DNA of 64,000 nucleotides from a virus (IMGVR_UViG_3300014205_000176), one strand, 5' to 3'; counted from the first letter of the stretch, positions 18,423 through 48,321 are shown. Translations and numbers: made by a program. Notes: a model not told the origin generated them from the letters alone.

Positions 18423-18423
18423 G

Positions 18424-28924: not shown

Positions 28925-30406
28925 ATGTTCGTTCATAATGTTCGATACGGGTTCGCTACCAACTCCAGCAGCACCCACTCAATTGTTCTAATCAAAAAGG
29001 GAGTGAGGGTACGTGACGATTCCGAGGATCAGGAATTCGGATGGAACTTCTTTACCTGCGCTAGCGAAGAGGCCAAGCGTCAGTACCTAGGTCAAGTCGT
29101 AAAGATTAATCTGGCCCATCTTGCCGACCTTGAAGATGAGGATGCGGCCATCATTGCTTCGAAGTGGGCCGGTGTTGAAGTTAATCCTTCTGGATACATC
29201 GATCACCAAAGCATCATAGCTATACCAAGCAATGTTAATTGGGGACGTTACCATCTTCGACGTGATTTCTTTGATGATCTGTTGGCATTCATCCTTCGTA
29301 AAGATGTAGCTATCCTTGGCGGGAATGATAATGAAGAGGACAGGCATCCGCTTATCCGTGATGGTAAGGCCAGGAATGTTCTCAAGAGATATCAATGGGA
29401 TGACGAAGAGATTGGCAGCCCAGTCCTCAATCTAATGCTTGAGAGCGGTAGTAAACATCTTCGTGCCAGATATGATAAGGTAGGTAAGTTCTGGTCTTTA
29501 TTCTGCGGTCGAAGTGGAACAAAGGTTCGTACTTCATTTACAGAAGATGCTAATGCAGATAAGTCTGAAGTGCCTGAGTTGGTAGATGTTAAGATAACAG
29601 ACTATTGCAAACAAGGCTGCTATTACTGCTACCAAGGATCAACTCCAAAAGGCAAACACGCCAGTAAGGAACTTGTCCGCAACGTTGCTTATGCCTTGAA
29701 AGAACTGGAAACTTTCGAGGTGGCCCTGGGTGGTGGTGAGTCAACTGAACACCCAGATCTTTTAGAAATTATAGATGACTTCCATCACATGGGAATTGTT
29801 GTCAACTTAACTACAAGAAATGAAGATTGGGTAATTAATAACCTACCAACAATCAAGGATAAGATTGGCGGTATTGGTCTCAGCGTAGACTCAAGCCATG
29901 GCCTACTTGATAAGCTGGCAAAATTACGAACGCATCTTCCAAATGTCAATTGTGATTCTGGGTTGAAGTTAACTGTGCAGGTAGTAGTGGGGTCTTGTTC
30001 ACAGTATGAGATGGAAGACATCTTAGAGACTTGTAAAACATTCCATCTCACCGTACTACTACTAGGCTGGAAGAATACCCATCGAGGAGCTAGGGCGCGA
30101 AGAGAAGAAGTAAATCTCATTACACTACTTGATCGCTTCTGGAAAACTCATGAAGAGAAAAGCTTCTGGGATGGCCCCTCTGTTTCTTTTGATACTAGTA
30201 TTGTGATTGAGATGAGAGAATGGCTTGAGGTTAATGGAGATAGGTGGAGATTCACTACTCGTGAAGGTGCCCACTCAATGTACATCGATTGTGTTAGCGA
30301 GACGATGCACAAGTCATCATACGAAGCAGAAGCATCAGGGGCTGTACTTAATCATAATCAGCTGGAAATGTCAGTTAATATCAAAAATTACTTCTCTACT
30401 CTGTAG
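28925..30406 (+). CDS. radical SAM domain protein
   Basis: CX3CX2C cluster 'CKQGCYYC' followed by 'ALGGGEST' glycine-rich SAM motif; about 200-aa N-terminal extension of unknown function. Confidence 0.55.
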   Translation: MFVHNVRYGFATNSSSTHSIVLIKKGVRVRDDSEDQEFGWNFFTCASEEAKRQYLGQVVKINLAHLADLEDEDAAIIASKWAGVEVNPSGYIDHQSIIAIPSNVNWGRYHLRRDFFDDLLAFILRKDVAILGGNDNEEDRHPLIRDGKARNVLKRYQWDDEEIGSPVLNLMLESGSKHLRARYDKVGKFWSLFCGRSGTKVRTSFTEDANADKSEVPELVDVKITDYCKQGCYYCYQGSTPKGKHASKELVRNVAYALKELETFEVALGGGESTEHPDLLEIIDDFHHMGIVVNLTTRNEDWVINNLPTIKDKIGGIGLSVDSSHGLLDKLAKLRTHLPNVNCDSGLKLTVQVVVGSCSQYEMEDILETCKTFHLTVLLLGWKNTHRGARARREEVNLITLLDRFWKTHEEKSFWDGPSVSFDTSIVIEMREWLEVNGDRWRFTTREGAHSMYIDCVSETMHKSSYEAEASGAVLNHNQLEMSVNIKNYFSTL

Positions 30407-30412
30407 GTTATT

Positions 30413-31039
30413 ATGGAACAATTTTTAGCATGGTACAATTTGATATTCTACCTCCCATTAGCTATCGGAGTGTTGTTCGCTTTGGGGGCTGGTATTGATT
30501 TAGGTCATGATGTAGAGTTACATGGTGATGTCGATGTACATGCTGACCATGATGCTGAGCATGACCACGATGGCGATGGTGAGACACACGGTATCTTGGG
30601 GTTCTTGGGAATTGGAAAGGTTCCTTTAGCAATATCAATGATGGCTTTGTTCTTGATATTCGCCGGCACTGGTTTGATAGCTAACATCATCTTTGGGTTC
30701 CTGATAAAAGCCTGGAGTGGTTTTGCGCTTATATCAGTCGGAGCTGCAGTGGTTGTTTCATTCTTTGGTACGGCCTTTGTTAGCCGTACTGTAGCGCGAT
30801 GGATGCCAACTACAGAGACTGATTCAGTTACAAAGCATGACTTACTTGGCTGTTCCGGAAAAGTTATACTTGAGTGCTCTCCGAAAGGGATTGCTCAAAT
30901 TCACAATAGGAAGGGGGATATGTTTCAGATTCAATGTAAGTCTGATCAGCCCCTGGAATATGGAGCCAAGATAATCACAATAGACTACGATTCTGCATCG
31001 GATTACTTCACGGTAGAACTTGATCCAACAGTTGGATAA
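30413..31039 (+). CDS. NfeD-like membrane protein (C-terminal OB-fold); partner of the SPFH/flotillin protein
   Basis: Multiple TM helices, His/Asp-rich loop, C-terminal 'GKVILECSPKGIAQIHNRKGDMFQIQ' OB-fold-like segment; immediately upstream of the flotillin gene. Confidence 0.5.
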   Translation: MEQFLAWYNLIFYLPLAIGVLFALGAGIDLGHDVELHGDVDVHADHDAEHDHDGDGETHGILGFLGIGKVPLAISMMALFLIFAGTGLIANIIFGFLIKAWSGFALISVGAAVVVSFFGTAFVSRTVARWMPTTETDSVTKHDLLGCSGKVILECSPKGIAQIHNRKGDMFQIQCKSDQPLEYGAKIITIDYDSASDYFTVELDPTVG

Positions 31040-31054
31040 GAAGGGACATTTTCA

Positions 31055-32965
31055 ATGAGTTTGTTTTTCCTATTGCTATTCGCAATTATTCTCATCGCTG
31101 CGCCAATTGCCATCAGCGCGTTCACTCACATTCATGTCAGCGGGCTATCATCTGTAATGATGACAGGTGTGGGAATCCTGTTGTTATTGGTGTGTGCAAT
31201 CCTCATTACCATCACCAAACTCTACGTTCGAACAAAGGCCAGTGAAGCGTTCGTTCGCACTGGTATGGGTGGCCTGAAGGTCATTCGAGATGGCGGCTCT
31301 CTGGTGCTCCCAGTGGTTCACCAAATCGTTAAGGTATCTCTGGAAACTATCAAGCTCGAAGTCTTGAGAGTTGCGGCGGATGCACTCATCACCAGCGACA
31401 AACTAAGGGCAGATATCAAGGCCGAGTTCTTCGTTCGAATTCAACCAGAAGATACGGCAATCCAAGCCGCAGCACGTTCTCTTGGTGACAAGGTTAGTGA
31501 GGAGAACTCAACGAAGGGCAGCAACTACAAGCAGAGTGTCATCGCCTTACTTGAAGACAAGCTCATCTCTGCCCTACGAACAAGCGCAGCATGCAAGACA
31601 CTTGAGCAACTCAACAGCGAACGCAATGAGTTCCTCAAGGAAGTGACGCAGTTGGTGACAGACGATCTGAAGCACAACGGATTCTTGCTTGAGACGGTTA
31701 CCATTTCGCGCCTTGACCAAACCGATGTATCAAATCTCAAGGAGAGCAACATCTTCGACGCACAGGGCGCGCGAACCATCGCAGAGATCACGCAGCGTAA
31801 CTTGACTGAGAAGAACAAGATCCTTCGTGAAGGTGATCAGGCTCGTACTGCTCAGGACGTTCAGACTCGTACAGCTGTTCTTGAGTTGGAACGAAAGCGT
31901 GCGGAGGCTGAGGCAACGCAGGCTGCTGCAATTGCTACCATCACAGCCGAACAAGATCGCGTCACCAAAGAGAAGCAGATGGCGGCTCAGCTATCTGTCG
32001 ATGTTGCAACTGCTGACAACGCAAAGCAAACGGAAGTTGCCCGCATCAACCAGAAGCAGGCAATTGAAGTTTCTCAACGTGCGCAAATAGAAGCAATCGT
32101 TGAAGCTGATAAAAAAGTTGAAATCGCCAAGCGAAATCAGCTCAAGGCAATTGCTGATTCAGATGCCGAGAAGGCCCAAGCAGAAGCTAAGTTGGCAGAT
32201 GCAGAAGCTGACCGCGCGAAGGCTCGACAGAACATTGTCACTGTTGAATTGGTAGCTGCTGCAGATCGTGAGCGGCAGAAGACCATCATCGAAGCTCAAG
32301 CTATTGCAGAACGTAACTACGTAACTGCACAGAAGGCAGCTGATGGTGACGCCTATCGAATCAAGGTGGAAGCCGATGCTAAGAAGGCTAGTGCGGATGC
32401 TGAGGCAGAAGCCACCACGAAGAAGGCAACTGCAGAGGCCACTGCAAACCAACGCCGAGCCGAAGGTAACAAGGCTCTGTTGGTGGCGGAAGCTGAAGGT
32501 GCTCAAGCCAAGGCGCTCGCCGAAGCTGCAGGCCAGAAAGCTTTGGCCATGGTACCGGTCGAAGTCAACGCACGCCAAGTGGAAGTTGATCAGCAACGAG
32601 TCCAGGAAGTCTTGGTGCCTGAGTTGAAGGCTCGTGCAGAGAACGGTGAAGCTGCCCAAAACTTCGAGCTTGCCAAGTTCCGCATCGAACAAGAAGCTCG
32701 TGTTCGCATCGAAGCCGCTCATGCCACAGCTCAGTTCTATGGCAAGATCCAAGCTAACGTCTATGGTACTCCGGAAGATGTAGCTAAGATGAGCGAGACA
32801 TTCACGAAGGGTATGGGTCTTTCGCAAATGTTCGGTGGTTTCATGGCTGGGGCTGATGGTTCCACCGTCGAAACCGTGCAGAAGATCATGGGTGCAGTGG
32901 ATGGTTTGGCCACGGCAGCTGCGAACAAGCTGTCTGGAAAAGGCTCAGCTTCAGACGCAGAATAA
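31055..32965 (+). CDS. flotillin-like SPFH (band 7) domain protein with long Ala/Glu-rich coiled coil
   Basis: N-terminal TM helices, SPFH core ('FVRTGMGGLKVIRDGGSLVLPVVHQIVKVSLETIKLEV...ITSDKLRADIKAEFFVRI'), then EA-rich repeats as in FloT/YuaG. Confidence 0.7.
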   Translation: MSLFFLLLFAIILIAAPIAISAFTHIHVSGLSSVMMTGVGILLLLVCAILITITKLYVRTKASEAFVRTGMGGLKVIRDGGSLVLPVVHQIVKVSLETIKLEVLRVAADALITSDKLRADIKAEFFVRIQPEDTAIQAAARSLGDKVSEENSTKGSNYKQSVIALLEDKLISALRTSAACKTLEQLNSERNEFLKEVTQLVTDDLKHNGFLLETVTISRLDQTDVSNLKESNIFDAQGARTIAEITQRNLTEKNKILREGDQARTAQDVQTRTAVLELERKRAEAEATQAAAIATITAEQDRVTKEKQMAAQLSVDVATADNAKQTEVARINQKQAIEVSQRAQIEAIVEADKKVEIAKRNQLKAIADSDAEKAQAEAKLADAEADRAKARQNIVTVELVAAADRERQKTIIEAQAIAERNYVTAQKAADGDAYRIKVEADAKKASADAEAEATTKKATAEATANQRRAEGNKALLVAEAEGAQAKALAEAAGQKALAMVPVEVNARQVEVDQQRVQEVLVPELKARAENGEAAQNFELAKFRIEQEARVRIEAAHATAQFYGKIQANVYGTPEDVAKMSETFTKGMGLSQMFGGFMAGADGSTVETVQKIMGAVDGLATAAANKLSGKGSASDAE

Positions 32966-33020: not shown

Positions 33021-33425
33021 ATGAAGAAAAGGAACCGTGTGGCCCCCGAGCGGTTGAGATTCGGGGGCGCTTCTATGACAAAGAAGAAGTGCATAGAAAG
33101 ATGGCTCGCCAACAACCCTGTCAATCAGCAGGTTATCGTTAAATTGTTGGGTAGCGAAGATGGAAGGTTAACTATTGCGTGTAGTTTATTGAACCCACTT
33201 AATAGACGTATTGCATATCTAAGAGATAAGCTTGAGTCTGGAAGATGTTTGTTGGGTTATAAAACTTGTCTAGAAGATATAGCTAGTAACTTGGATAATA
33301 CAATTTCTTATCTTGAAGAGTTTTTGGCCATACTATATAAAAGAGAATTGAGCCGCCCATTGATAAAGCAACTGCGGTCAATTTTAGAAGAGGCTAAGCA
33401 GTTCAAGTCTGGGTTGCCACAATGA
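33021..33425 (+). CDS. hypothetical alpha-helical protein
   Basis: 134-aa ORF immediately upstream of the cas block. Confidence 0.35.
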   Translation: MKKRNRVAPERLRFGGASMTKKKCIERWLANNPVNQQVIVKLLGSEDGRLTIACSLLNPLNRRIAYLRDKLESGRCLLGYKTCLEDIASNLDNTISYLEEFLAILYKRELSRPLIKQLRSILEEAKQFKSGLPQ

Positions 33426-33922
33426 TAGATAATCACATTCAACTCTGTGCCGAACAACTTCCAGAAAGCTCTCGTCCAGAGTTCATTCGATATGTGAATG
33501 ATCTATTAGATAAAGACCAATGGTACGGTATAGGCCCTGATTTCTTGGGCTTCATGGATGATTACGTTTCGTTGAGAGATTTGATCGAGCGGCATATTGT
33601 CGAGCCCTCTGATGGAATTATCAGCTGGAAAGAGTCGAACTTCATCATCTACGACGTTGGATGCGCCACAGCAATACAACATGTCTTCTTTGGTAAATGT
33701 AAAGGCTATGTAGGAATTAGTCCTCCAGGGCCACCTATTCCACAGTTCTTCTTACCAAGATGTAGTTTTTATAGTGGGTATCTATCCGAGGTTGTAGATG
33801 AGATGGATATCGATTACGAGAACTCTTTCGGCATAGCCAATATGTCCATCCTGTATGACCGGCGCGAGAGTGATGAACTGGAAATATTCAATAGAGTTTT
33901 CAAGCGAAAGTTTATCATATGA
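33422..33922 (+). CDS. hypothetical protein
   Basis: 166-aa ORF. Confidence 0.4.
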   Translation: MIDNHIQLCAEQLPESSRPEFIRYVNDLLDKDQWYGIGPDFLGFMDDYVSLRDLIERHIVEPSDGIISWKESNFIIYDVGCATAIQHVFFGKCKGYVGISPPGPPIPQFFLPRCSFYSGYLSEVVDEMDIDYENSFGIANMSILYDRRESDELEIFNRVFKRKFII

Positions 33923-33934
33923 AGGGAGCTACAG

Positions 33935-34390
33935 ATGGAACCTGAAGCTTACGTTACTGAGGTTGATGGGAAGTTAGTCTTGGTTGATCCAATGGCCTGT
34001 GCTATGATTGACGCTATCACCCAGCACAACAAAAGCCTTTGCCGCAGCACCCTCGAACTACAACTGGATCGGGCTAAGCATTTCGCTCGAAGGGTCCGGG
34101 AGTTGGGTCGGCGGCCATCCGAAGTGGTTATCGTGCTGCTCAACGTTGACGATCCTCAGGGCGGCGCAGTGGCAGACATCCTGATGCCCGGCCACGATTG
34201 GCAACAGTTCCGTGATCGTGGGGAGGTTCCGTTCGCGCGTGGGCTTGCCGGACGTGAGGGGCTTCAGGGAATCTTGGATGAACTTGACCCGCTGGAAGGC
34301 CAGAAGCTACGAGAGGCATGGATGGTCAACACTGTGGTTGTAATGGACCACGGCGCGGTTGAGGTGTTCAAAGAGGGAGAGGATTTTTAG
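33935..34390 (+). CDS. hypothetical protein
   Basis: 151-aa ORF ending 1 nt before the cas3 start. Confidence 0.4.
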   Translation: MEPEAYVTEVDGKLVLVDPMACAMIDAITQHNKSLCRSTLELQLDRAKHFARRVRELGRRPSEVVIVLLNVDDPQGGAVADILMPGHDWQQFRDRGEVPFARGLAGREGLQGILDELDPLEGQKLREAWMVNTVVVMDHGAVEVFKEGEDF

Positions 34391-34391
34391 T

Positions 34392-36737
34392 ATGCTAGCT
34401 AATTCAGACCACAGACAAGAACTTACAAAACACTGCGTTGGTGCGATGATGTTAGCTATGCATTGCGCCAAGCACCTTGGGATTTCCGATGACGATCTAA
34501 TCAACGTGATTGGTTTGTCGGCATTCCTTCATGACATTGGGAAGTGTACCGTATATTTTAACAACATTTCCTTGGCTAGTGACTATAGCGAGGAGAATAA
34601 ACAGAAGCATTATCCTAAATACTCTGGACAGCATGAATATCCAAGGCACAATGAGATTTCATGGGTATATGCGACATTTCATGCAAAGGCCAAGGGTCGT
34701 GGTGTTCGGTTCAAAGACATCGGGCCGCAGGCGATCTATTGGCATCACGGTACGTTGCTGAATTCGTACGAGATTTTAGATCAAACCTCTCCTAGAAACA
34801 CACACACCGTCATTGGCGAGCTGAAACTATTCGATGAAAACGAATGGACGAAGATATCAGAGACAATTGATGGTATTCTGAAGTCTGTTCAGTTCCCATT
34901 TGATGTCACCAAGTACCTAGAGGATGACGTTGATGACGAACCTCGCAATATTCCAAGGTTGTTTACCGATGATGGTGATGAAAGTAGCCTGACCAACGCT
35001 CATCGCATGATTGCCAGGAGTTGCGTTATCTTCTCCGACCACATTGTATCCAAGCTATCGATAGAAGAGCTGGATGACCTGATTGAAAATAGTGCTGATT
35101 CATACTTCCCTAAGGGAAGGGATATAAGGTACGAAAATTTTCAATGTCCAATCACATATGACCAGGAACGATTTCAGATTCAAAAGGACATTGTAAACTC
35201 TTGTGAACGAACGACATTAGTAAAAGGTTCTGCGGGATTTGGTAAGTCGCTGGTTGGTTTGATGTGGGGAGCCCAGAAGTCCGGACCGGTGTATTGGGTA
35301 TGCCCAAGAAATGCAGTTGCTGAAGGTGTATATTTAAATCTATTGAAGGAGATTGATATCCTTGGACTTGGTACAATCTCCATTGAACTGTACCACGCAG
35401 GAGAGCGTAAAGCTACCAACTCACCAAGTGTACCAGATTGTGGTTGTGACATTGTGGTAACCAATATTGACAACCTTCTATCGCCAATGGTTGATTCAAA
35501 ATCGATTGCGAGGTTGTTTGATGTTACAGCTCGCAATGTGGTGCTTGATGAGTTTCATGAATTCCTTAATGATGAGGCTTTGTTTGGGGCGTTTGTCATC
35601 TATATGAGGGCGCGCAATCTGGTATGTGCGAACAGTCATACACTGCTACTCTCAGCTACCCCATCGATAATGCATAAATTCTGGGAAGGTGAAGGTAACT
35701 CTAGAAGGACAAAAATCCTTCCAAATCCAACTGAACATTATCTAGCACAGCATAAGAAGCTTTACAAGATATCTTTCGATGAAGACTTTGTTGAACACCC
35801 AATTGGTGGCTCTTTGACAATGTACTCATCGATCAGAAATGTTCAAGGGTGCTACGGCAACGGATACACTAGCATCGTTCATAGTAACTACGGAGAACCA
35901 GATCGCCATGCGATAATGAATGGAATTCTTAAGTCATTTGGGAAGGGTGGTGATAAGAATGGCACTGTGGTTTCAGCGCCGATTCTACAGGCCGCTCTTG
36001 ACATCAGCTTCAGAGGGCTATTCAAAACCATAGAATCACCAGAATCCGATATACAAACTTTCGGAAGAATCAACCGATGGGGAGAACAAGACGGTGTATG
36101 TGAACTCGTCATGCTTAAACTTAGGAGTAATAAAGGTGAGAGGTCGGCCATCAGCGAACGGTACAGCTGTCATCTATCGGATCTTTGGAGCCGTATGTTA
36201 GAGGGCGAGGCATCCGAACCAGTTGATTTGGATTTCCTATACCGATTGTATAACAAATTCAATAAGGTTTACAACGATGAGCTAGTTGCGTTTATTAAAA
36301 ATAAGTATCTGATATCAATTGATAAGTTGAAGACATTCTTCCCAAGGGCGCGCAAACATCAGAGTGGCAAGAGTAAAGTTGTAACTGCCAAGACGCTGAG
36401 GAATAGTTCGAGTTCGTGTTTTATTGTGGTGAAAAACAGAACAACTGGAGTTTGGTGCCCTTTCACATTCAATATTCAAGACATCGAACTGAAGGATCTG
36501 ATTGCTGATAATAGAAGAAGAATAGAATCTTCTACATTGAAAACGGTATGGGAATCGTTAGAGGCCACAGGTGAGTTTGACTATGCCGAACTAACGAAAA
36601 TGTTCTTTGGTAAGAAGAAACCAAAGAGGCTAACGGTTGAAAACCTGAAGCCATTTGCTCGTTGTGGAGAAACACCACTACCAATCTTTACGTGGTACTA
36701 CGATGCAACGCTTGGTCTCGTCAAAGCGCGAGTGTGA
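34392..36737 (+). CDS. cas3: Cas3 (HD nuclease fused to SF2 helicase)
   Basis: HD motifs 'AMHCAKH...FLHDIGK'; helicase motif I 'GSAGFGKS', motif II 'VVLDEFHEF' (DExH), motif III 'LLSATP'; 781 aa from the ATG after the upstream stop. Confidence 0.8.
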   Translation: MLANSDHRQELTKHCVGAMMLAMHCAKHLGISDDDLINVIGLSAFLHDIGKCTVYFNNISLASDYSEENKQKHYPKYSGQHEYPRHNEISWVYATFHAKAKGRGVRFKDIGPQAIYWHHGTLLNSYEILDQTSPRNTHTVIGELKLFDENEWTKISETIDGILKSVQFPFDVTKYLEDDVDDEPRNIPRLFTDDGDESSLTNAHRMIARSCVIFSDHIVSKLSIEELDDLIENSADSYFPKGRDIRYENFQCPITYDQERFQIQKDIVNSCERTTLVKGSAGFGKSLVGLMWGAQKSGPVYWVCPRNAVAEGVYLNLLKEIDILGLGTISIELYHAGERKATNSPSVPDCGCDIVVTNIDNLLSPMVDSKSIARLFDVTARNVVLDEFHEFLNDEALFGAFVIYMRARNLVCANSHTLLLSATPSIMHKFWEGEGNSRRTKILPNPTEHYLAQHKKLYKISFDEDFVEHPIGGSLTMYSSIRNVQGCYGNGYTSIVHSNYGEPDRHAIMNGILKSFGKGGDKNGTVVSAPILQAALDISFRGLFKTIESPESDIQTFGRINRWGEQDGVCELVMLKLRSNKGERSAISERYSCHLSDLWSRMLEGEASEPVDLDFLYRLYNKFNKVYNDELVAFIKNKYLISIDKLKTFFPRARKHQSGKSKVVTAKTLRNSSSSCFIVVKNRTTGVWCPFTFNIQDIELKDLIADNRRRIESSTLKTVWESLEATGEFDYAELTKMFFGKKKPKRLTVENLKPFARCGETPLPIFTWYYDATLGLVKARV

Positions 36738-36759
36738 AGAAAGTAACAGATAGGATAAC

Positions 36760-37836
36760 ATGATTAAATCAATTTTCATAAAGGCAGTTATTGAAGGTTC
36801 TGGGATTGTCAACTTCGATTCCAACGACCAACGCTTCATTTGGAACCGACAGCGCAATGTAGAAAGCGTTTGGCACAACAACGTGTCCTTTGGCAAAGGT
36901 CGTTACTATCCAGAGGTGGGGAGTGACGGTGACGATAGGGAATACCTAAAAAAAGTAGGTGTCATATCAGCGGACTGCATTCGTCACAGTATGTATGAGG
37001 ATTGTATGTTCATTCATCTTCCGAATGTCATGCATGATGATGGTTTGTTACTCAGCACGGTGGCTCATCCGGCATTTCTGGAGCGCGGGTATATGTTTGC
37101 TCGTGACAATCGCTCAAGTTGGAAGCGAAAGTCTGCATTTGCATTATCCTATGCCAGGGCAGTGACTAGTTCGGCCCCGATGCTAGAGACATACTCGAAC
37201 AGTCAACCAAAAACTGGCGAGAACAAAACGGAAGACGTGGCAGAAACATCATTCTTCAAGCGAGAAGTTCGAGGCGATACTACCTATGAACTTTCCGGGG
37301 CTATTGATGTGAGCGAGTTGGCATTCATTTCGCTTAGCGATGTCCATGACCGGTTGAGTTTCGACCTAGACTACGCCGCCAGATATCGCGAGCTTCTGAA
37401 AGGGCGGATGGGCTCAGAAATTCCGGAGCCTGCGTTCTTCCAGAAGAATGGTGATGTGTATGATATTCCCGAGTGTGGAATTTTGCTTACGCAGGCACAG
37501 GTCAAATTCCTAACCACGAACATTCTTCGGCGATTGGCGCTATTCAATGTAGTTCGAACTGTTACTGGAAGCGCCAAGACGGCGTCGGTGAGCATCAAGA
37601 TCGTCAGCGACCCTCTGGAGGATTTATTCGGCAATCCAGATGGTTGGGTTGAGATTTTTGATGGTAAAAAATTCGATGTTAGCGCTTTTGATGGCGAGTC
37701 TTTTGCAACGGCCTACACCAAAGTGAAGCTGCAGGAAGAGGCATTACAAAAATGCGATAGTTACAAGAAGAAGTTTGGCTACGAGAAGCCGGTGAAGGAA
37801 GAGAAACCTGCCAAGCCAGCGGCAAAGAAAAAGTAG
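36760..37836 (+). CDS. cas7: Cas7-like backbone subunit
   Basis: N-terminal 'IEGSGIVNFDSNDQ' and 'ISADCIRHSMYED' resemble the conserved Cas7 (I-B/I-C lineage) 'NPNGDP ... TDVCLKRKIR' segments; position between cas3 and cas5. Confidence 0.5.
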   Translation: MIKSIFIKAVIEGSGIVNFDSNDQRFIWNRQRNVESVWHNNVSFGKGRYYPEVGSDGDDREYLKKVGVISADCIRHSMYEDCMFIHLPNVMHDDGLLLSTVAHPAFLERGYMFARDNRSSWKRKSAFALSYARAVTSSAPMLETYSNSQPKTGENKTEDVAETSFFKREVRGDTTYELSGAIDVSELAFISLSDVHDRLSFDLDYAARYRELLKGRMGSEIPEPAFFQKNGDVYDIPECGILLTQAQVKFLTTNILRRLALFNVVRTVTGSAKTASVSIKIVSDPLEDLFGNPDGWVEIFDGKKFDVSAFDGESFATAYTKVKLQEEALQKCDSYKKKFGYEKPVKEEKPAKPAAKKK

Positions 37837-37885
37837 ATCAGTGCCTCCATCAACCTTAATTCCTTGTTTACATGCAGGGGAAATC

Positions 37886-38773
37886 ATGCCGCCATACGAT
37901 TACGCATTAGTGCTCAGGTTTGAGAATGCGGGAATCTTTCCAAAGCGTTGGAAGGATGTAGATGGAACGATGACCAGTAGATCGAAGGATGATCGAATAT
38001 TTATTGGTAAGTCTCGTAATAATAGAGTCCAATCTCAATGGGTTGAGCAACAAGTGAACACGATTCACGCTACATTTATTGAGAATGTGATTAGGGTTTT
38101 GTGTGGTATGCGTCCAATCAGCAGGTACCGTCCAACCTGTGTAAATAGTTATGGTAACTTCGTCGCAATTGCCAAGCGTTCTTTTGTTCATATAGACAAT
38201 GCTACAAAAGAGGATAAGGAAGGGAACGTAGTATATCTAACCGAGAAGATGACTATTAGAAAGTGTATGCATAATAGTTGGTCATATGCTATTCCAAGCT
38301 GGATTAGGTTTAAATACCTTTTACCAGATGAGTTATATGTAGAATTGGTCGTGGTTGCTAGCGATATTTGCGGTGGCAATGCCGAGGAGATGCTGTTTGA
38401 GAAGGTTGCAAACACTCTCTTGAAGAGCAAGGATGCTAGGGTTAATAAGTTGGTGGTTAAGGCTAGGGAAAGTAGATGTGAGCCATTGGCGAAGCTCTTA
38501 GAAGGGAACAAGGATAATGGTTTATATCAGGCTGGCTATCAAGGTCTTGGCCCATACCTCAGGACGCTAGTGACTAAAGGTGTATGCGATGTGATTCGGT
38601 TAGACGGGCGGATTTGCATACCAGTTTTCACCAAAGAGTTGGGTCTGTTTGGTAATGGCAATGGGTGCGCCACTATTTTTGATGGTGGTTTGGTCCGAAT
38701 TGATCGGGTTTGTGACTTGCAGAACACAACGCTTGATATGGTAGTTGCTGGATACCACAAGGCTCAACAATGA
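37886..38773 (+). CDS. cas5: Cas5-like subunit
   Basis: N-terminal 'YALVLRFENAGIFPKRW' matches the Cas5 'hxhxAxxAxFRxP' opening. Start moved to the ATG with AGGGGAAATC RBS; stop overlaps the cas6 start. Confidence 0.45.
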   Translation: MPPYDYALVLRFENAGIFPKRWKDVDGTMTSRSKDDRIFIGKSRNNRVQSQWVEQQVNTIHATFIENVIRVLCGMRPISRYRPTCVNSYGNFVAIAKRSFVHIDNATKEDKEGNVVYLTEKMTIRKCMHNSWSYAIPSWIRFKYLLPDELYVELVVVASDICGGNAEEMLFEKVANTLLKSKDARVNKLVVKARESRCEPLAKLLEGNKDNGLYQAGYQGLGPYLRTLVTKGVCDVIRLDGRICIPVFTKELGLFGNGNGCATIFDGGLVRIDRVCDLQNTTLDMVVAGYHKAQQ

Positions 38774-39297
38774 AAGTCTACATCATTCATCGGGCGTACG
38801 AGGACGGATACAAGAATCATCAAATGGCTAAGGAAATCTTCCCTGGCGATGGTAAGTTGTTGTTCCAAAAGGTTGGCTCTCGGTTGGTAGTGGAAACAGA
38901 TCTGGAAATTGACCCTAAGTTTGCTGATAACTTTGAAATACAATTCGCCAAGACAACCGATCAGGCGTTATCGAGTCTTTCTGGTGACGTACAGTTTGCG
39001 ATTCGGCTCAACGCGGTCAAGTCCAACAAGAGACGAAGGTTTCCGGTTTATCGGGACCGGCTTCATGCTTGGGTAGATGGTAAGTTGTCTGGCATTGGGG
39101 CAGATATTCGGTCCAAGGTGGTCATTGACGAAGGTATGATGGTGAGTGATCGCAAGGGAATGAAATGTTGTCACTCATCAGTGTTTGTGATGGGCTTTTT
39201 GAACGTGACGGATCTTGAAAGATTTGCTAGTGTGGTACATACTGGCATCGGGCACGGGAAGGCTTTTGGTTTTGGTTTGATGAACGTTTTTGGATGA
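38770..39297 (+). CDS. cas6: Cas6 crRNA endoribonuclease
   Basis: C-terminal glycine-rich loop 'GIGHGKAFGFGLMNVFG' (GhGxxxxxGhG); located directly upstream of the CRISPR array. Confidence 0.65.
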   Translation: MKVYIIHRAYEDGYKNHQMAKEIFPGDGKLLFQKVGSRLVVETDLEIDPKFADNFEIQFAKTTDQALSSLSGDVQFAIRLNAVKSNKRRRFPVYRDRLHAWVDGKLSGIGADIRSKVVIDEGMMVSDRKGMKCCHSSVFVMGFLNVTDLERFASVVHTGIGHGKAFGFGLMNVFG

Positions 39298-39493
39298 TTT
39301 ATTGCGAGCGGTTGGGTGGTGCAATATCTGCTGCAACCGCTCGCAATTCTCACAACTCACTATAATCACAGAGAAAATCCTAGCTATCGCGGTTGAAGTT
39401 TGGTGTATGGATGTGTAGTTCTTTTGGCGAATAAGATAGGCGCTCGCGAAGGCTAGTTCAAGTGATTGAAAAGACAGTGGAGTTGAGGGGTAT
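39298..39493 (+). promoter_or_regulatory. CRISPR leader with strong hairpin and consensus -10 box
   Basis: Perfect 13-bp inverted repeat TTGCGAGCGGTTG (39302-14) / CAACCGCTCGCAA (39334-46), then TATAAT at 39361-66, about 130 nt upstream of the first repeat. Confidence 0.4.
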
Positions 39494-40689
39494 ATTTAAA
39501 TCCCTTCCGACAAGTGAAGGGGTCGAAACAGCTGGGCTTTCCAAGGCTGGCGTCGTTCACCTGAAATTTAAATCCCTTCCGACAAGTGAAGGGGTCGAAA
39601 CGCGTACAGGGACGCGTTGAGGCTTGCTGGTCTCGGTATTTAAATCCCTTCCGACAAGTGAAGGGGTCGAAACTCTGATGGTACGACATATGAAGCCCCA
39701 CACCAATATTTAAATCCCTTCCGACAAGTGAAGGGGTCGAAACAGCTTCTTCGGTGCCGTCTTGAAATAGAACTCAAGATTTAAATCCCTTCCGACAAGT
39801 GAAGGGGTCGAAACGACTAGACGAACAACTCAAACAACAGCTGGAACGATTTAAATCCCTTCCGACAAGTGAAGGGGTCGAAACGCCAACCCCTTAAGAG
39901 CTTGGCGCAAAGGACTTCGGTATTTAAATCCCTTCCGACAAGTGAAGGGGTCGAAACATGGTGGCCGTGGTCAGTGTTCTCCAACCAGCACCAATTTAAA
40001 TCCCTTCCGACAAGTGAAGGGGTCGAAACTGCATGCTTGGATGCGAGGGTAGGCGTAGGCGCTTAAATTTAAATCCCTTCCGACAAGTGAAGGGGTCGAA
40101 ACGAGACCATGATGTGGCATAGAACGCTTTGTAGACAGGATTTAAATCCCTTCCGACAAGTGAAGGGGTCGAAACCGACCATAGTGGAAAGTCTTTGATG
40201 TTTTTTGCCGAGATTTAAATCCCTTCCGACAAGTGAAGGGGTCGAAACGCCGGTACGAACGCGGCTGCAGAAACGGATCCAGATTCAAGTCCCTTCCAAT
40301 AAGTGAAGGGGTAGAAACAGTTCAGGGTGTTGTCTCAGAATATTGCTAAAGGTGATTTAAGTCCCTTCCAATAAGTGAAGGGGTAGAAACGAGATTGCGT
40401 ATCATCACTGCGTTTATGCGTATGGATTCAAGTCCCTTCTAATAAGTGAAGGGGTAGAAATGATTCTATGCCAGGTCGATACGACAGCGTCGAAGACATT
40501 CAAGTCCCTTCCAATAAGCCTTCCAAGTGAAGGGGTCGAAAACGTCGAATGGTGTACCAATATACTGGAGCCAATATCAAGTCCCTTCCGATAAGTGAAG
40601 GGGTCGAAAAAATGAAGGGTTGAAACGTGATTCAACAGGCGCGCAAAGGAAAGTCTAATCATCCCTTCTAATAGTGAAGGTGTCGAACG
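39494..40689 (+). CRISPR. CRISPR array of about 17 repeats (36 bp) and 16 spacers (34-38 nt)
   Basis: 11 near-identical repeats ATTTAAATCCCTTCCGACAAGTGAAGGGGTCGAAAC (39494-40248; internal 6-bp stem CCCTTC/GAAGGG, 8-nt 3' tag GTCGAAAC). Then 3 copies of a variant repeat ATTCAAGTCCCTTCCAATAAGTGAAGGGGTAGAAAC (40283-40461), one repeat with a 10-nt internal insertion (40498-40543), and 2 further degenerate copies up to about 40689. Confidence 0.95.
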
Positions 40690-40703
40690 AGTGGCCGGTA
40701 TGC

Positions 40704-41192
40704 TTACGAATGTTCGGCCAGCATCTTTTGAAGTTCCTGGTGACGGTTCTTCTTCTGATCCTTGCGCCACTCCTTCTGCTTTTCTTGGTAGGCTTTCACG
40801 CAGGCCGGACAGCGACAGCGGTGCTTCCGATACATCCAGTATGTACCGTGCGTAGGCTTTGGTGTAGAATAGTCCCAAGCTTCTTTCGTCTTCTCTCTAT
40901 GGCAATCCTCGCATAAGATCTGGAGGTTCTTGATTTCACTCTCGAATCTCTTATCATTCACCGAGTGAAGGTCTGATGCGCGCATGGTCTTCTTGGACTT
41001 GTCTTTGTGGTCGAGGTGGAAGTGCCCCTCTTTACTTCCGCAGCGAGTACATCGGCCGCCCAATCGGTCAATCACTTCCTGGCGCTTCTGGTGATATCGA
41101 TTGGCCATATACTCCCTCATGTAGTCTGCACGGGGATGATTAGCCGCCTCAGAATACAACTGGGCATACTTCAAAAGACATTCAAAGTCCAT
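40704..41192 (-). CDS. HNH endonuclease
   Basis: 'GGRCTRCG...HLDHKDKS...N...LCEDCHREKT' HNH motif with zinc ligands; minus strand immediately after the array trailer. Confidence 0.7.
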   Translation of the reverse strand: MDFECLLKYAQLYSEAANHPRADYMREYMANRYHQKRQEVIDRLGGRCTRCGSKEGHFHLDHKDKSKKTMRASDLHSVNDKRFESEIKNLQILCEDCHREKTKEAWDYSTPKPTHGTYWMYRKHRCRCPACVKAYQEKQKEWRKDQKKNRHQELQKMLAEHS

Positions 41193-41867: not shown

Positions 41868-43775
41868 ATGAGTCTCAAATCCCTTCTAGATCAGATTGAT
41901 ACCCACGACACCGCCTATTACAACGAAGGCAAACCTACCATATCTGATCCTGAATACGATGGGCTCAAGGATCGTTTGGGTACTTTGGTCAAGGCATTCA
42001 CCAAGGCCAACGATTCTGCTACTGAAGAACTCCAGGCGCGTGCAGCTAGGACACTCGTACGTGTCGGCGCTCCCCCACCAGAACACGGCGACTGGCCCAA
42101 GTACACGCACGAAGTCCCCATGGACTCGTTGAACAAGGTGAATCTTCCGGCAGAGCTGCTGGGATGGTACGAGAAGTGTGGCAGGCCAGTTGAACTCCTT
42201 GAGACTGAAAAGCTTGACGGCATGTCGATCAGCTTGAAGTACGAGAAGGGCCGTCTATTCAGTGCAGCTACTCGTGGCGATGGAGATGTGGGGGAAAATA
42301 TTACCGCCAACGTCAGTTTGATGGACGTACCGCTGCGGTTGAGCACTCCTTTCTCTGGTCACATTCGCGGTGAAATCGTTCTGCTGAAGAGTGTTTGGAA
42401 GAAGCATCTATCGACCATGGCCAACACTCGCAATGCTACAGGACTTGCGAAGCGCCATGATGGAACAGACTGTCAGCACCTTACCATCATTGCCTACACT
42501 ATCGAGGGCAAGGATTTCAAGAAGGAATCTGAAGCCTACGAATACATCAAGAGCCTGGGATTCCGGATCCCGAACTACCGAATTGGAACAGTCCAAGATG
42601 CCAATGTGATGTGGCAAGAGTACATGGACAAGACTCGGGAAACTCTTGATTGGGACATTGACGGCCTTGTGATCTTCATCAATGATCGAGCAGCGCGTTT
42701 CGCTCTCGGCGATGAGGGGCGCGGTCCCAAGGGCGCAATCGCTTTCAAGTTCGAAGCTCCCGAAGCAAGAACCAAGGTCACTGACATCGTGCCTCAGGTT
42801 GGTGACACCGGCATCATCACTCCGGTTGCTGAATTTGAGGAAGTGGAATTGCTCGGCGCGAAAATCAAGCGGGCCTCATTACACAACTTCTCTTTGGTAA
42901 AAGAACTCGGCGTCAACATTGGAGCTGAGATTTTGGTAACTCGCGCCAATGACGTCATTCCGTACGTCAAGGAAGTTACCAAACCAAACAACGGATACTT
43001 CCACATTCCAGAGAAGTGCCCAGCTTGCGGTACTAAGACCGTGCGCGTTGGAGAGTACGTTCGCTGCCCGAATAAGCAAACCTGTCCGCCACAAGTCATC
43101 GGCAGATTGAATAAGTGGATTGGAGAACTTGGCATCCTAGAATGGGGCGAGTCCATCCTCACCAAGCTTATTGCTTCCGGCAAAGTCAAGGACATTGCTG
43201 ACATCTATCGCCTCACGGCGGCTGACATCACAAGCCTTGATCGCATGGGGGATAAGGGCGCTGCAGGTTTACTGAAGGAACTCGACAAGTATCGCGCAGT
43301 GACTTTAGAGAACTTCGTAGGTGGACTCTGCATTGATGGCGTGGCCACTTCAACGGTCAAGTCAGTCATTGATCAAGGACATGACTCTCTTGACAAGCTT
43401 CGAGCACTATCACAGCGGCAGTTGGAAAGTGTCCCGGGGTTTGGTGAGAAGCGAGCCCGAGCACTCTTCGAAGGACTGAAAGAGAATAAGGGAAGAATGG
43501 ATGACATCCTCAGCGCCGGGGTAATCATCAAAGCAAAGATCAAAGGCGCATTTACCGGCAAGCACTTCTGCTTCACCGGAACAATGGAAACGCCACGCAA
43601 GAACCTTCAGCAAATGGTCATTGCTGCCGGCGGAGAAGTTGATAAGTCAGTCAGCAAGAGCACAACTCATCTTGTAATAGATGATGTGGCAAGTACCAGC
43701 AGTAAGGCGGTGGCAGCCCGCAAGCTGGGTACCAAGCTGATATCCGAGGCAGAGTTCCTCGCAATGATCAAGTAG
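41868..43775 (+). CDS. ligA: NAD+-dependent DNA ligase LigA
   Basis: Adenylation motif 'EKLDGMSISL' (KxDG), OB fold, zinc finger 'CPACGTK...C', HhH and C-terminal BRCT ('FCFTGTMETPRKNLQQMVIAAGGEV'). Confidence 0.85.
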   Translation: MSLKSLLDQIDTHDTAYYNEGKPTISDPEYDGLKDRLGTLVKAFTKANDSATEELQARAARTLVRVGAPPPEHGDWPKYTHEVPMDSLNKVNLPAELLGWYEKCGRPVELLETEKLDGMSISLKYEKGRLFSAATRGDGDVGENITANVSLMDVPLRLSTPFSGHIRGEIVLLKSVWKKHLSTMANTRNATGLAKRHDGTDCQHLTIIAYTIEGKDFKKESEAYEYIKSLGFRIPNYRIGTVQDANVMWQEYMDKTRETLDWDIDGLVIFINDRAARFALGDEGRGPKGAIAFKFEAPEARTKVTDIVPQVGDTGIITPVAEFEEVELLGAKIKRASLHNFSLVKELGVNIGAEILVTRANDVIPYVKEVTKPNNGYFHIPEKCPACGTKTVRVGEYVRCPNKQTCPPQVIGRLNKWIGELGILEWGESILTKLIASGKVKDIADIYRLTAADITSLDRMGDKGAAGLLKELDKYRAVTLENFVGGLCIDGVATSTVKSVIDQGHDSLDKLRALSQRQLESVPGFGEKRARALFEGLKENKGRMDDILSAGVIIKAKIKGAFTGKHFCFTGTMETPRKNLQQMVIAAGGEVDKSVSKSTTHLVIDDVASTSSKAVAARKLGTKLISEAEFLAMIK

Positions 43776-45289: not shown

Positions 45290-45493
45290 TGCAACTCCAG
45301 AAGATTCAGAAACCACAGATCACGGTCCGCTAGGCAATGCACATGCAGCTCGGGTTGAGGTTGATTACCCATATCAAATTGAGCAGTGGGTGATTGAGAT
45401 GGGGACTGATCATCCTGAAATTATTCGCGCTGAGTATGAAGATCTCCGGCGCAAATGGACGAGAGACTCACCAACCACCTTTGTCGAGGTCCC

Positions 45494-46057
45494 ATGGTAA
45501 CTAAGAAGGTTCTGAACCGAAAAGGCAAGTACCTAAGTCTCATCCTTCGACATGAGCCGGACCAAGCCGGGATCACTCTCGACAGCGGCGGCTGGACTGA
45601 CGTGGGGGCTCTGCTCCTTGCAATCAAGTTGTCATTGCCTGAGCTGGAGGAGATTGTTGCGGCGGACGAGAAGGGGCGCTTTGAATTCAGCGATGACCGA
45701 ACTAAGCTTCGAGCAAGCCAAGGACATTCGGTAGAGGTTGATCTCGGGTATGAGATCAAGATTCCTCCACAGTATTTGTATCACGGGACATCTCGAAACA
45801 ACTTTGCCGGCATCCGAGATAATGGCCTGATGAAGATGGACAGACATGATGTCCACATGTTCGATAGTCATCAGCAAGCTCTTGAAGTGGCAACTAAGCG
45901 CAGACCAAATCCTGCTGTCTTAAAAATCGCGGCACAAGAAATGGCAACGAATGGTTACCAGTTCAAGTTGTCAACCAATAACGTTTGGCTGACTGAGATA
46001 GTTCCGCCAAGGTACCTGTGGGTAGATGAGAGTCTTTTGGTCAGTATTGACATCTGA
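45494..46057 (+). CDS. kptA: RNA 2'-phosphotransferase Tpt1/KptA
   Basis: 'LSLILRHEP', 'GGWTDV', 'RASQGHS', 'YLYHGTS' Tpt1 motifs; start moved to an internal ATG. Confidence 0.75.
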   Translation: MVTKKVLNRKGKYLSLILRHEPDQAGITLDSGGWTDVGALLLAIKLSLPELEEIVAADEKGRFEFSDDRTKLRASQGHSVEVDLGYEIKIPPQYLYHGTSRNNFAGIRDNGLMKMDRHDVHMFDSHQQALEVATKRRPNPAVLKIAAQEMATNGYQFKLSTNNVWLTEIVPPRYLWVDESLLVSIDI

Positions 46058-46080
46058 GATGCTTCGAGTATCATCGTCCC

Positions 46081-46371
46081 ATGACCCCAAGGGATCGGCC
46101 TCCAACGCATCCTGGCGTTCTGATCCGTGATGCGATTCATGAGCTTGGAATGACTCAGGCAGAGCTAGCTCGGAGGCTCAGGATACCGCTGCAGCGATTG
46201 AACACGATTGTGAGGGGCAAGCGCGGGGTGACCGCCGACACTGCTCTGCGGCTGTCCAAAGTCTTCGGAACCACTCCAGAGCTTTGGCTGAACCTGCAAA
46301 TGGCGGTGCGGCTTTGGAATGCTCGGCAAACCGCCCACCTATCCGGACTAAAGCCTCTGCGCTTGACTTAA
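46081..46371 (+). CDS. HigA-like XRE-family HTH antitoxin-type protein
   Basis: 'GMTQAELARRLRIPLQRLNTIVRGKRGVTADTALRLSKVFGTTPELWLNLQ' is a typical HigA/VapI HTH. Confidence 0.6.
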   Translation: MTPRDRPPTHPGVLIRDAIHELGMTQAELARRLRIPLQRLNTIVRGKRGVTADTALRLSKVFGTTPELWLNLQMAVRLWNARQTAHLSGLKPLRLT

Positions 46372-46403
46372 GGCATACTCTATGCCAGAATCATGAAGGA
46401 ACT

Positions 46404-46616
46404 ATGCCATCACCCAGTCAAGGACAAGGACTGTTGTCTTGTAGTATTTGCGGTCATGAACTTGAATTCAGAGGAAAGAACGGTGCGATTCTAAACACCA
46501 AGTGTTCCCATTGCGGAATGTCCTCTGATTCTTTGGTTGACAACGCTCCGCCGCCACGAACCAAAGAGATCAAGGTATATTACAGAGGCAAGGCTCCAAT
46601 GAGTGTCCCGCCCTGA
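46404..46616 (+). CDS. small zinc-ribbon protein
   Basis: 'CSICGHE...CSHCGM'. Confidence 0.35.
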   Translation: MPSPSQGQGLLSCSICGHELEFRGKNGAILNTKCSHCGMSSDSLVDNAPPPRTKEIKVYYRGKAPMSVPP

Positions 46617-46640
46617 AGGAACTTGGAGCCATAGGAAATT

Positions 46641-47426
46641 ATGGCTCGAACACTACAGCAGAGAATGATATCATATGAGGAATCTACCGATACTAGAATA
46701 ATTAGTAGAATTCCAGTCATAATCAAAATTGATGGTTTCTCATTTGCGCGAGCAACAAGAAACATACAGAAACCATTTTGTCACAAAACAATGGCAATGC
46801 TCAATGGAACAATGCTTTCCCTAGTCAAGCAAATTGATGGGGCGGTATTTGGTCTACAGTATTCCGATAAGATCATTCTCGTTCTCCGAAATGACCGCAG
46901 CGAGAACGAAGATCCATGGTTTGGAAATGATGTGCAATCTATGTGCTCGGCTTCAGCTTCCAAAGCGACGTACGAGTTCATGAACCAACTATGGGAAATA
47001 GATGAGCCTCCGACACTTGAGGGCAGCATTGCATTCAGGTCAAAGGTATTTGGGATTCCAAGTATCACAGAGGTAATAAACTACATCATCTACCAACAGT
47101 ACTGCTGTATGCAGTATGCCATCAATGAGGCTGTGTACTCAATCTTGGGTAGAAGATCTGTCATTGATGGAATGGATATCGAGGCGCGCAAAAAGATCCT
47201 TGACGATGCCGGTGTTTCGTTTGATGCTTTCCCAGCATCATTCCGTCACGGGTCTGCAGCCTACGTAACGCCAAAGCTAGTCCACACCTCTCACGGCGAA
47301 ACAACCCATCACAAATGGATGTTGGATTTCAATGTCCCTCTGTTTGTGGATGATAAGGACCGAGAAAGACTTCGAACTATCCTCAAGACTGGCAGCGACA
47401 TCTTCATACCTGAGCGTGATCTATGA
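46641..47426 (+). CDS. Thg1-like nucleotidyltransferase (tRNA-His guanylyltransferase family / TLP)
   Basis: 'VIIKIDGFSFARATRNIQKPFCHKTMAMLNGTM...VFGLQYSDKIILVL' follows the Thg1 pattern 'VVRLDGRNFHRF...KPND...M...YGQSDEYSFVF'. Confidence 0.55.
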   Translation: MARTLQQRMISYEESTDTRIISRIPVIIKIDGFSFARATRNIQKPFCHKTMAMLNGTMLSLVKQIDGAVFGLQYSDKIILVLRNDRSENEDPWFGNDVQSMCSASASKATYEFMNQLWEIDEPPTLEGSIAFRSKVFGIPSITEVINYIIYQQYCCMQYAINEAVYSILGRRSVIDGMDIEARKKILDDAGVSFDAFPASFRHGSAAYVTPKLVHTSHGETTHHKWMLDFNVPLFVDDKDRERLRTILKTGSDIFIPERDL

Positions 47427-47758: not shown

Positions 47759-47759
47759 T

Positions 47760-48275: not shown

Positions 48276-48321
48276 TCGGTCGAGAGCCCTAGATGAGCGG
48301 GCATGGTTAGCTGAGGCAACC

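Follow-up and report, generated by a model that had tools for sequence, protein, structure and literature searches.

A Cas8-less type I CRISPR-Cas module on a huge phage, probably restricted to interference and directed against competing phages

The 64,000-nt stretch of the viral genome IMGVR_UViG_3300014205_000176 analysed here (hereafter the window) carries a compact type I CRISPR-Cas module, in which the genes cas3, cas7, cas5 and cas6 are followed by a repeat array. We consider it highly probable that this is an interference-only module of the I-F2 type without Cas8 and Cas11, that it resides on a huge phage (at least 390-460 kb), and that it is used against competing phages. This reading is built on the four genes and their array, on the conservation of the block in relatives, on its phage context, on one protospacer in another phage, and on spacers that differ between sister phages. 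The module is real, widespread and, as far as its sequence tells, apparently functional, and it has been missed by curated Cas5 profiles.

Between positions 33021 and 41192, the window holds seven open reading frames (ORFs) on the plus strand, the array, and one HNH endonuclease gene on the minus strand. The interference set proper consists of four genes at 34392-39297, with 1,609 codons in 4.9 kb, in the order cas3-cas7-cas5-cas6 and then the array. A sequence-only reading of the window had given the same gene order and coordinates, and upstream context and public gene calls give better support to the starts at 34392 for cas3 and 37886 for cas5. The same reading had treated the whole span up to 41192 as one system; its right end is the HNH gene, a neighbour and not a part of the module. 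In G+C content, the cas genes (43-47%) do not differ from the remainder of the window (46.7%), which marks the module as a long-standing resident.

The type I signature, a Cas3 with an HD nuclease and a superfamily 2 (SF2) helicase, is present, and genes for Cas7, Cas5 and Cas6 effector proteins of the repeat-associated mysterious protein (RAMP) kind adjoin the array, as type I requires. By far the best match of Cas3 was the Cas3fv model of PADLOC (5.8e-59), with Cas3b as the runner-up (5e-19). Furthermore, it matched Cas3_HD, DEAD and Cas3-like_C_2 of Pfam, all above cutoff, and cas3_HD of NCBIfam (6e-13, 49.2 bits, above the cutoff of 43.45). Its sole solved sequence relative was PDB 9g44_A (3e-32), the Cas3 of the Shewanella putrefaciens I-F2 Cascade-Cas3 complex (PMC12956352). 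The motifs HDIGK (position 47), GFGKS (282), DEFH (386), SAT (421) and QTFGRINR (555; QxxGRxxR) are intact. The Cas2 domain fused to the Cas3 of type I-F is absent, because the alignment, which covers positions 108-770 of the 951 in the Cas3fv profile, starts at 108 and the protein opens directly with its HD domain. Cas7 appears to be a homologue of Cas7fv that lies outside the equivalog, as suggested by its matches to NCBIfam NF040577 Cas7fv (E 9.6e-19, 67.8 bits against a cutoff of 200), to PADLOC Cas7fv (6.7e-14), to the solved Cas7fv chain PDB 5o6u_C (9e-9) and to Pfam DevR (5e-7), as well as by its precomputed Pfam label PF28157 “Cas7fv-like”.

The 295-amino-acid protein encoded between cas7 and cas6 had no match in Pfam, NCBIfam, PADLOC, PHROGs or PDB. 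Profiles of its family, made from 14 and from 150 sequences, gave no link to solved Cas5 structures, and no Cas model of NCBIfam matched the 150 family members scanned. A second structure model, based on the 150 sequences, reached a predicted local distance difference test score of 95.3 and a predicted template modelling score of 0.84, and shows a RAMP core, made of strands at 6-46 and 231-277, into which a helical domain is inserted at about 139-225. The closest fold to this model is Cas5fv of the type I-F2 (I-Fv) Cascade, whose alpha-helical (AH) domain stands in for Cas8 in reading the protospacer adjacent motif (PAM; PMC12956352). On the predicted fold, the operon position and the invariable linkage to the other genes, we call this protein a Cas5. 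The sequence-only reading had named the products of the genes at 36760, 37886 and 38770 as Cas7-like, Cas5-like and Cas6, and the profile searches led to Cas7fv for the first and Cas6e for the last. The product of 37886 joined no family, Cas or other; its predicted fold is nearest to Cas5fv, while homology in sequence to any Cas5 was not detected.

Cas6 is of the Cas6e/CasE type, as indicated by Pfam PF08798 (4.4e-15), PADLOC Cas6e (1e-16) and NCBIfam TIGR01907 casE_Cse3 (2e-10; 41.3 bits, just under the 45.2-bit cutoff), together with weak PDB matches to CasE/Cse3. Cas6f gave no match to it in Pfam, NCBIfam or PADLOC. Six relatives keep both His17 and the GIGxxxxxGxG loop at the C-terminus without change, His17 being presumably the counterpart of the catalytic His20 of Escherichia coli CasE. 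An earlier suggestion that this Cas6 and the repeat are of the I-B/I-D/III kind does not hold, as the protein matches Cas6e models and none of those kinds, and the repeat forms a hairpin in the style of I-E, followed by a tail of 8 nt.

The array begins with 11 identical 36-nt repeats (ATTTAAATCCCTTCCGACAAGTGAAGGGGTCGAAAC) from 39494 to 40248. These are followed by five progressively degenerate repeats (at 40283, 40355, 40426, 40498 and 40575), of which that at 40498 holds an internal duplication of 11 nt, and by a vestige at about 40656-40691, which brings the number to 17. The spacers, all different, are 34-37 nt long, with one of 30 nt in the decayed part. Each intact repeat contains the 6-bp stem CCCTTC/GAAGGG, which a U-G pair extends to 7 bp, and then the 8-nt tail GTCGAAAC. 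Repeat number and length, stem and 3' tag had all been described by the sequence-only reading and were all found again; in addition, the stem covaries in relatives, where it is kept by compensatory changes (CCCTGC/GCAGGG, CTCTTC/GAAGAG, CCCTAC/GTAGGG). The decay of the array runs away from cas6, and this, together with the 196-nt gap at 39298-39493, places the leader beside cas6 and transcription on the plus strand. The leader lies inside a block that is 99% identical to the sister phage L008, an IMG/VR viral genome of 391,957 bp (IMGVR_UViG_3300021077_000115), and that extends through repeat 1. A scan for consensus promoters and terminators was uninformative, with promoter-like sites fewer than in shuffled sequences.

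The three ORFs upstream of cas3 (orfA, orfB and orfC; 33021-34390) had been suspected of hiding a divergent subunit. None of them has a match in Pfam, NCBIfam, PADLOC or PHROGs. The homology to L008, 99% over 33935-39529, starts exactly at 33935, and to the left of this position the two phages are unrelated; thus orfA and orfB are not linked to the module, and only orfC is shared. In the loci searched for them (L003-L007, L009-L019 and L027-L029), none of the three stands beside the module, and in L009 a divergently transcribed gene precedes cas3. Since they are not conserved beside the module in relatives, we rejected the upstream ORFs as a hidden Cas8 or Cas11, and orfC is probably an accessory or neighbouring gene rather than a core part. 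Across about a dozen distinct related loci, the module has no conserved fifth gene; a subunit translated inside another gene is possible.

Adaptation genes were not found either. Precomputed Pfam labels for Cas1, Cas2, Cas4 or Cas8 are missing among the window ORFs at 6.7-61 kb and within about 10 kb of about a dozen related loci. Likewise, when 87 ORFs of the window and 184 (124 + 60) ORFs from the flanks of relatives were screened with PADLOC and Pfam, the 25 strongest families included no Cas1, Cas2, Cas4, Cas8 or Cas11, the PADLOC screen of the window comprising matches stronger than about E 5e-7. The proposal of a Cas3-Cas7-Cas5-Cas6-array module without a large subunit and without adjacent adaptation genes is therefore borne out in the window and in its relatives.

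Table 1. Features of the cas region, in positions of the 64,000-nt window
Feature	Position	Strand	Basis or remark
orfC, 151 aa	33935..34390	+	abuts cas3; no family match
cas3, stand-alone HD nuclease and SF2 (DExH) helicase, 781 aa	34392..36737	+	profile matches, motifs
cas7, Cas7fv-like backbone subunit, 358 aa	36760..37836	+	profile and PDB matches
cas5, RAMP protein with inserted helical domain, 295 aa	37886..38773	+	predicted fold only
cas6, Cas6e/CasE-type crRNA endoribonuclease, 175 aa	38770..39297	+	profile matches
leader, 196 nt, from cas6 to first repeat	39298..39493	+	in 99%-identical block of sister phage L008
CRISPR array, 17 repeats	39494..40691	+	11 identical, 5 degenerate, 1 vestige
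HNH endonuclease gene	40704..41192	minus	abuts decayed array end

The carrier of the module is, by all indications, a huge phage. A 211,871-bp contig of the European Nucleotide Archive agrees with the window at 100% identity in the two parts that were compared, 38777-61035 and 6734-28422. The Cas proteins of the window also occur on a 463,377-bp NCBI contig (locus tags M0R72_01420/01425) that was binned as “Candidatus Pacearchaeota”, a label which we regard as a binning error. In the window, 80 of the 96 ORFs lie on one strand and most have no family; phage-type genes include an endolysin, several HNH and GIY-YIG homing endonucleases, ThyX, an NAD-ligase and an RNA-repair cluster of RtcB, Thg1 and Tpt1. 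Contigs of 212-463 kb, a sister genome of 392 kb in IMG/VR and a phage-type gene content agree with the proposal that the module is phage-borne. Among 50,697 records of isolate phages, the locus had no match at either the nucleotide or the protein level, and a search for a host array with the same repeat gave zero matches of the repeat patterns in the genome collection and in Joint Genome Institute metagenome contigs.

An indication of what the module is used for comes from spacer 1 (39530-39565), which is leader-proximal and presumably the newest. It matches, at 36 of 36 positions, the 16.3-kb IMG/VR contig 3300037067_023194; by a rough estimate, the chance of a 36-mer match in about 1e11 bases is about 1e-10. 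A 290-amino-acid gene matching the PHROG “major head protein” (1.8e-17) contains the protospacer at its 3' end. Next to this gene stand those for a large terminase (TerL), a portal and a head protease, and the target is therefore an ordinary small tailed phage. Because spacer 1 has coding-strand sense, its CRISPR RNA (crRNA) is not complementary to the mRNA, which leaves DNA as the target, in line with a type I system; for the same reason, a reading of the module as RNA-targeting was rejected. On the spacer-sense strand, the protospacer is preceded by ACGCGTTT and followed by GACCAAG, and from this one protospacer the candidate 5' PAM would be T-rich. The earlier idea that the module serves against competitors thus gains support from one exact spacer match in the major head gene of another phage. 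No self-targeting was seen, as spacers compared with the window and all fetched loci gave chance 12-13-mers only, and the 79 spacers of relatives had no cross-targets in the fetched loci.

The spacer content has turned over between phages with 99% identical cas DNA. A contig with the array end, from the same sample as the sister phage (L021), has two spacers unrelated to those of the window, followed by the array trailer and the HNH gene at 88% identity. With spacers that differ beside nearly identical cas genes, new spacers must be supplied either by adaptation proteins that the host or the remainder of the phage genome encodes, or by recombination between arrays. The HNH gene, conserved together with the trailer, may be a homing element. 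At the contig end of L008 (11640-12981), the first repeat is followed by visibly GC-rich sequence without a match in the window; here the assembler has probably fused unrelated sequences at the array, and two other assemblies, L001 and L002, stop at repeat 1.

The module belongs to a large family. A search with a Cas5 profile hidden Markov model, exhaustive over 1.84 billion cluster representatives (clusters at 50% identity), recovered 390 clusters at E <= 1e-3 and 265 at E <= 1e-10, whereas word-indexed searches gave only 14 Cas5 and 32 Cas7 relatives. Genes for cas3, cas7 and cas6 stand beside an array, between differing flanks, in L003-L007, L009, L010, L011-L019, L016 and L027-L029, and cas5 was recognised in all of these array-bearing relatives except L028. 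The cas3-cas7-cas5-cas6 set recurs in L030-L035, which were compared for their genes only. Four randomly sampled members (P0060, P0100, P0130 and P0190) all lie in blocks of cas3, Cas7fv-like, Cas5 and Cas6, in phage-like contexts with many small ORFs on one strand, in the case of P0060 (L031/L032) together with IF3, SmpB and sigma-70; Cas1 and Cas2 were not found at these four loci. Relatives in IMG/VR are located on viral contigs of 100-336 kb and have arrays of up to 37 repeats, and one IMG/VR clade has cas3 after the array. Three metagenome-assembled genomes (Bacteroidetes, Terrimicrobiaceae and Bacteroidaceae) also carry relatives, some with cellular-looking neighbours, and not all members of the family need be viral.

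The branches of this family differ in their crRNA-processing enzyme. Cas6e-type enzymes occur in the clade of the window (window, L003, L006, L009, L028, L029), while canonical Cas6/Cas6b-type enzymes occur in more distant members, in L010, L011-L019 and L016 (PADLOC 1e-31 to 1e-38; genes at L010 10770-11519, L011 10854-11558 and L016 10885-11601) and in L030-L035 (PF01881). L027 has a 234-amino-acid ORF in the cas6 position. Repeats of the Cas6b group are about 36-37 nt long and mostly end in ...ATCACAAC or ...GTCTCAAC, with spacers of about 29 nt. This is a clean case of a Cas6 type swapped between branches, with the repeat class changing to match. Since Cas6e and Cas6/Cas6b are found here and Cas6f in bacterial I-F2, the backbone is combined with three processing enzymes.

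Some variation in the relatives concerns the array. In L006 (7643-7963) and L007 (4113-4433), an array of five repeats lies between cas5 and cas6 and not after cas6. L003 and L004 share the same 294-amino-acid Cas5 and same-sized neighbours, yet cas6 is followed by an 11-repeat array in L003 (8063-8848) and by about 240 nt in L004 (8871-9111), either through array loss or through assembly collapse. ORFs in the flanks, within 10 kb of the modules (L003, L006, L009, L010, L011, L016), had strong PADLOC matches to type IV DinG (6e-52), to Csx1 (2e-45) and several to Cas12f/TnpB, the latter probably stemming from the IS605 OrfB genes of L003, L005 and L031.

How the module would work can be outlined from the solved complexes PDB 5O6U and 9G44 and from the family assignments, which together underlie every biochemical step given here. 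The array would be transcribed from the leader at 39298-39493. As suggested by the Cas6 family, the invariant His17 and the repeat structure, the Cas6e-type enzyme would bind the 6-7-bp repeat hairpin, cleave at its 3' base and stay on the hairpin. The resulting crRNA would consist of the 8-nt 5' handle GTCGAAAC, a guide of 34-37 nt and the 3' hairpin bound to Cas6. Going by homology and fold, about six Cas7fv-like subunits would coat the guide and Cas5 would cap the 5' handle. By analogy with 5O6U/9G44 (PMC12956352), the helical insert of Cas5 may read the PAM and open the duplex, which in Cas5fv is the task of the AH domain, and Cas7 may guide the displaced strand. The stand-alone Cas3 would then dock on the Cas5/Cas7 face of the R-loop and degrade the target DNA.

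The closest described system is I-F2 of S. putrefaciens CN-32 (PDB 5O6U, 5O7H, 9G44; PMC4937334, PMC12956352), which likewise has a four-protein effector without Cas8 and Cas11 and the gene order cas3-cas7-cas5-cas6, and whose Cas3 and Cas7 are detectable homologues of those in the window. The resemblance to I-F2 proposed by the sequence-only reading extends to the Cas8-less set, the gene order and the Cas3fv/Cas7fv homology. Three defining features of I-F2 are missing. The window has a Cas6e-type Cas6, in place of Cas6f; its Cas3 is a stand-alone protein of 781 amino acids, in place of a Cas2-3 fusion accompanied by Cas1, and no cas1 was seen in the window or in the flanks of relatives; and its repeats are 36 nt and spacers 34-37 nt long, in place of 27-28 and 32 nt. 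Two more features are partly seen, namely a Cas7 under the equivalog cutoff and a Cas5 which has no detectable sequence similarity to Cas5fv and corresponds to it by fold only. In addition, the window module is found on huge phages, whereas I-F2 is found on plasmids or genomic islands.

The setting is that of the CRISPR systems described from huge phages by Al-Shayeb et al. 2020 (PMC7162821), which also come from phages of more than 200 kb, have compact arrays without Cas1, Cas2 or Cas4 near the effectors, and carry spacers aimed at other phages. The class 1 example described there is an I-C-like variant without Cas6, with a Cas5d-like processing enzyme and a different helicase replacing Cas3 (PMC7162821); in contrast, the module of the window combines a Cas6 and a Cas7fv-like backbone with a genuine HD-Cas3. 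Nowhere does that paper use the term “I-F” (PMC7162821). In the passages searched, the 2025 classification names I-F1 to I-F4 (PMC12669027); it does not use the term “Cas6e”, and where it speaks of “phage”, three times in all, no type I variant is meant. We found no paper in the library searched that joins I-F2/I-Fv with huge, jumbo or mega-phages, although other papers or supplementary tables may do so. The kind as such is not new, because both adaptation-less huge-phage CRISPR systems aimed at phages (PMC7162821) and a Cas8-less Cascade (I-F2) are known.

Other type I and type IV systems are more distant. Type I-E (E. coli, Thermus thermophilus, Thermobifida fusca) has only the Cas6e-type enzyme in common with the module; the window gave no match to Cas8e (Cse1) or Cas11 (Cse2) and no Cas1-Cas2 was detected in it, and its Cas7 is of the Cas7fv and not the Cas7e kind. 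The Vibrio phage ICP1 has a type I-F1 system that includes Cas1. Like the module described here, it is phage-encoded and used offensively, there against a host-borne anti-phage element, and it differs in carrying Cas8f (Csy1) and a Cas2/3 fusion (PMC10161043). A type IV reading was rejected, given the HD-Cas3 and the lack of Csf1 and DinG in the module; the likeness to type IV is limited to the missing adaptation genes and to a weak match of the window Cas6 to type IV Cas6 (8e-14).

Several observations weigh against an I-F2-type, interference-only module of a phage. The 64-kb window itself is without genes for a capsid, portal or terminase, and the viral call therefore rests on IMG/VR and gene content. 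The NCBIfam Cas7fv score of Cas7 is far under the cutoff of that model. The I-F2 PAM, GG, corresponds to CC on the 5' flank of the spacer-sense strand, and the lone protospacer (n=1) has TTT there. The spacer searches gave a mixed outcome: next to the exact match of spacer 1 in a phage head gene, five of the six spacers tried had no target (spacers 2-6, searched in IMG/VR as 5-of-6 periodic patterns), and the whole array had no match among isolate phages and PLSDB plasmids at E 0.1. Finally, the screens for Cas1, Cas2, Cas4 and Cas8 show the 25 strongest families, so that weak matches could be hidden, and those for Cas1, Cas2 and Cas4 covered the window and the flanks of relatives, with 150-400 kb of phage genome outside them.

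This last point bears on the possibility that the system is complete, with cas1-cas2 and possibly cas4 elsewhere in the 390-460-kb genome, and that its interference-only appearance is an artefact of a 64-kb view onto at least 392 kb of phage. The different spacers beside 99% identical cas DNA in sister phages tell us that acquisition has occurred. Yet Pfam families of the three adaptation proteins are lacking around about a dozen related loci as well as among the window ORFs, almost all described huge-phage CRISPR systems are without adaptation genes (PMC7162821), and the Cas3 has lost the Cas2 domain that is fused to it in I-F; taken together, we regard a complete system as unlikely. Quite improbable, in our view, is that the module binds DNA without degrading it and so serves as a programmable repressor, directed at genes of the host or of competitors, in which Cas3 would be a helicase only or vestigial. 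Repression has been proposed for some huge-phage systems (PMC7162821), and type IV-A, also adaptation-less and on mobile elements, is described as silencing rather than cutting. In the window, however, the HD and helicase motifs of Cas3 are all intact, Cas3 is kept in every relative, and the known target, the 3' end of a capsid gene, is a poor site for transcriptional repression.

We give even less credence to a decaying relic captured from a host, with a fossil array and genes no longer in use. In favour of this, six repeats out of 17 are degenerate, no target was found for most spacers, the array of L004 is lost or collapsed, and that of L009 is heavily degenerate. Decay of leader-distal repeats is, however, normal in active arrays. 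Moreover, eleven repeats are identical, the leader-proximal spacer perfectly matches a contemporary phage, the four ORFs are intact with conserved residues at the checked motif positions of Cas3, Cas5 and Cas6, and the same gene set occurs in every relative examined of a family with at least 390 clusters at 50% identity. An interference-only module that a huge phage uses against its competitors is therefore the reading that we favour.

Besides the CRISPR-Cas module, the window contains other cargo. At 45455-51035 and 41868-43775 lies an RNA/DNA repair cluster with a Tpt1-like RNA 2'-phosphotransferase, a Thg1 tRNA-His guanylyltransferase, LigA and RtcB, which looks like a counter-measure to host tRNA nucleases. 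In the RtcB product of 752 amino acids, a segment resembling the PhoH ATPase (residues about 89-426) precedes the RtcB domain or lies within it, and this domain matches in two stretches. At 28925-30406 and 60380-60952 lie a radical-SAM protein, which matches the viperin (pVip) models of PADLOC at 1e-10, and a ThiF/E1-like protein, the most likely source of the many “E1-E2” matches in PADLOC; both are phage-encoded enzymes of a defence type. At 30413-32965, directly upstream of the cas genes, a YqiJ_N/NfeD-like membrane protein is followed by a 636-amino-acid SPFH/Band-7 protein with a long coiled-coil tail, an unusual pair for a phage. Auxiliary metabolic genes are present at 16734-19494, where a thiamine-pyrophosphate enzyme of the acetolactate-synthase kind precedes a KAS-III-like condensing enzyme; both are only about 28% identical to anything in the isolate phage records, and a tblastn search of phages with the former gave only acetolactate-synthase-like genes and contaminant records.

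Beyond the single phage, we tentatively entertain a broader interpretation, which we hold as possible rather than probable. The family may represent an unclassified branch of type I, at the rank of a subtype or variant, native to huge phages, with a Cas8- and Cas11-less Cas7fv-like Cascade, a Cas5 that is not covered by profiles, a swappable Cas6 (Cas6e, Cas6/Cas6b, and Cas6f in bacteria), and arrays renewed without phage Cas1-Cas2, through host machinery or recombination. As the Cas5 escapes the profile libraries tried, typing tools that depend on curated profiles may miss or mis-type this family. In size, the module falls below the I-F2 set of S. putrefaciens, whose engineering as a “hypercompact” type I tool is already under way, and it appears to read a PAM different from that of I-F2.

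With hundreds of clusters, mostly on very large phages, the Cas8-less Cascade is widespread and not an oddity of Shewanella. The pairing of either Cas6e or Cas6b with one Cas3/Cas7/Cas5 chassis amounts to a natural experiment in recombining crRNA processing with an effector backbone. With the match of spacer 1 to a small tailed phage's capsid gene, CRISPR targeting of one phage by another takes concrete form. Furthermore, the spacer turnover in the absence of nearby adaptation genes makes the question of how phage arrays acquire their spacers directly testable.

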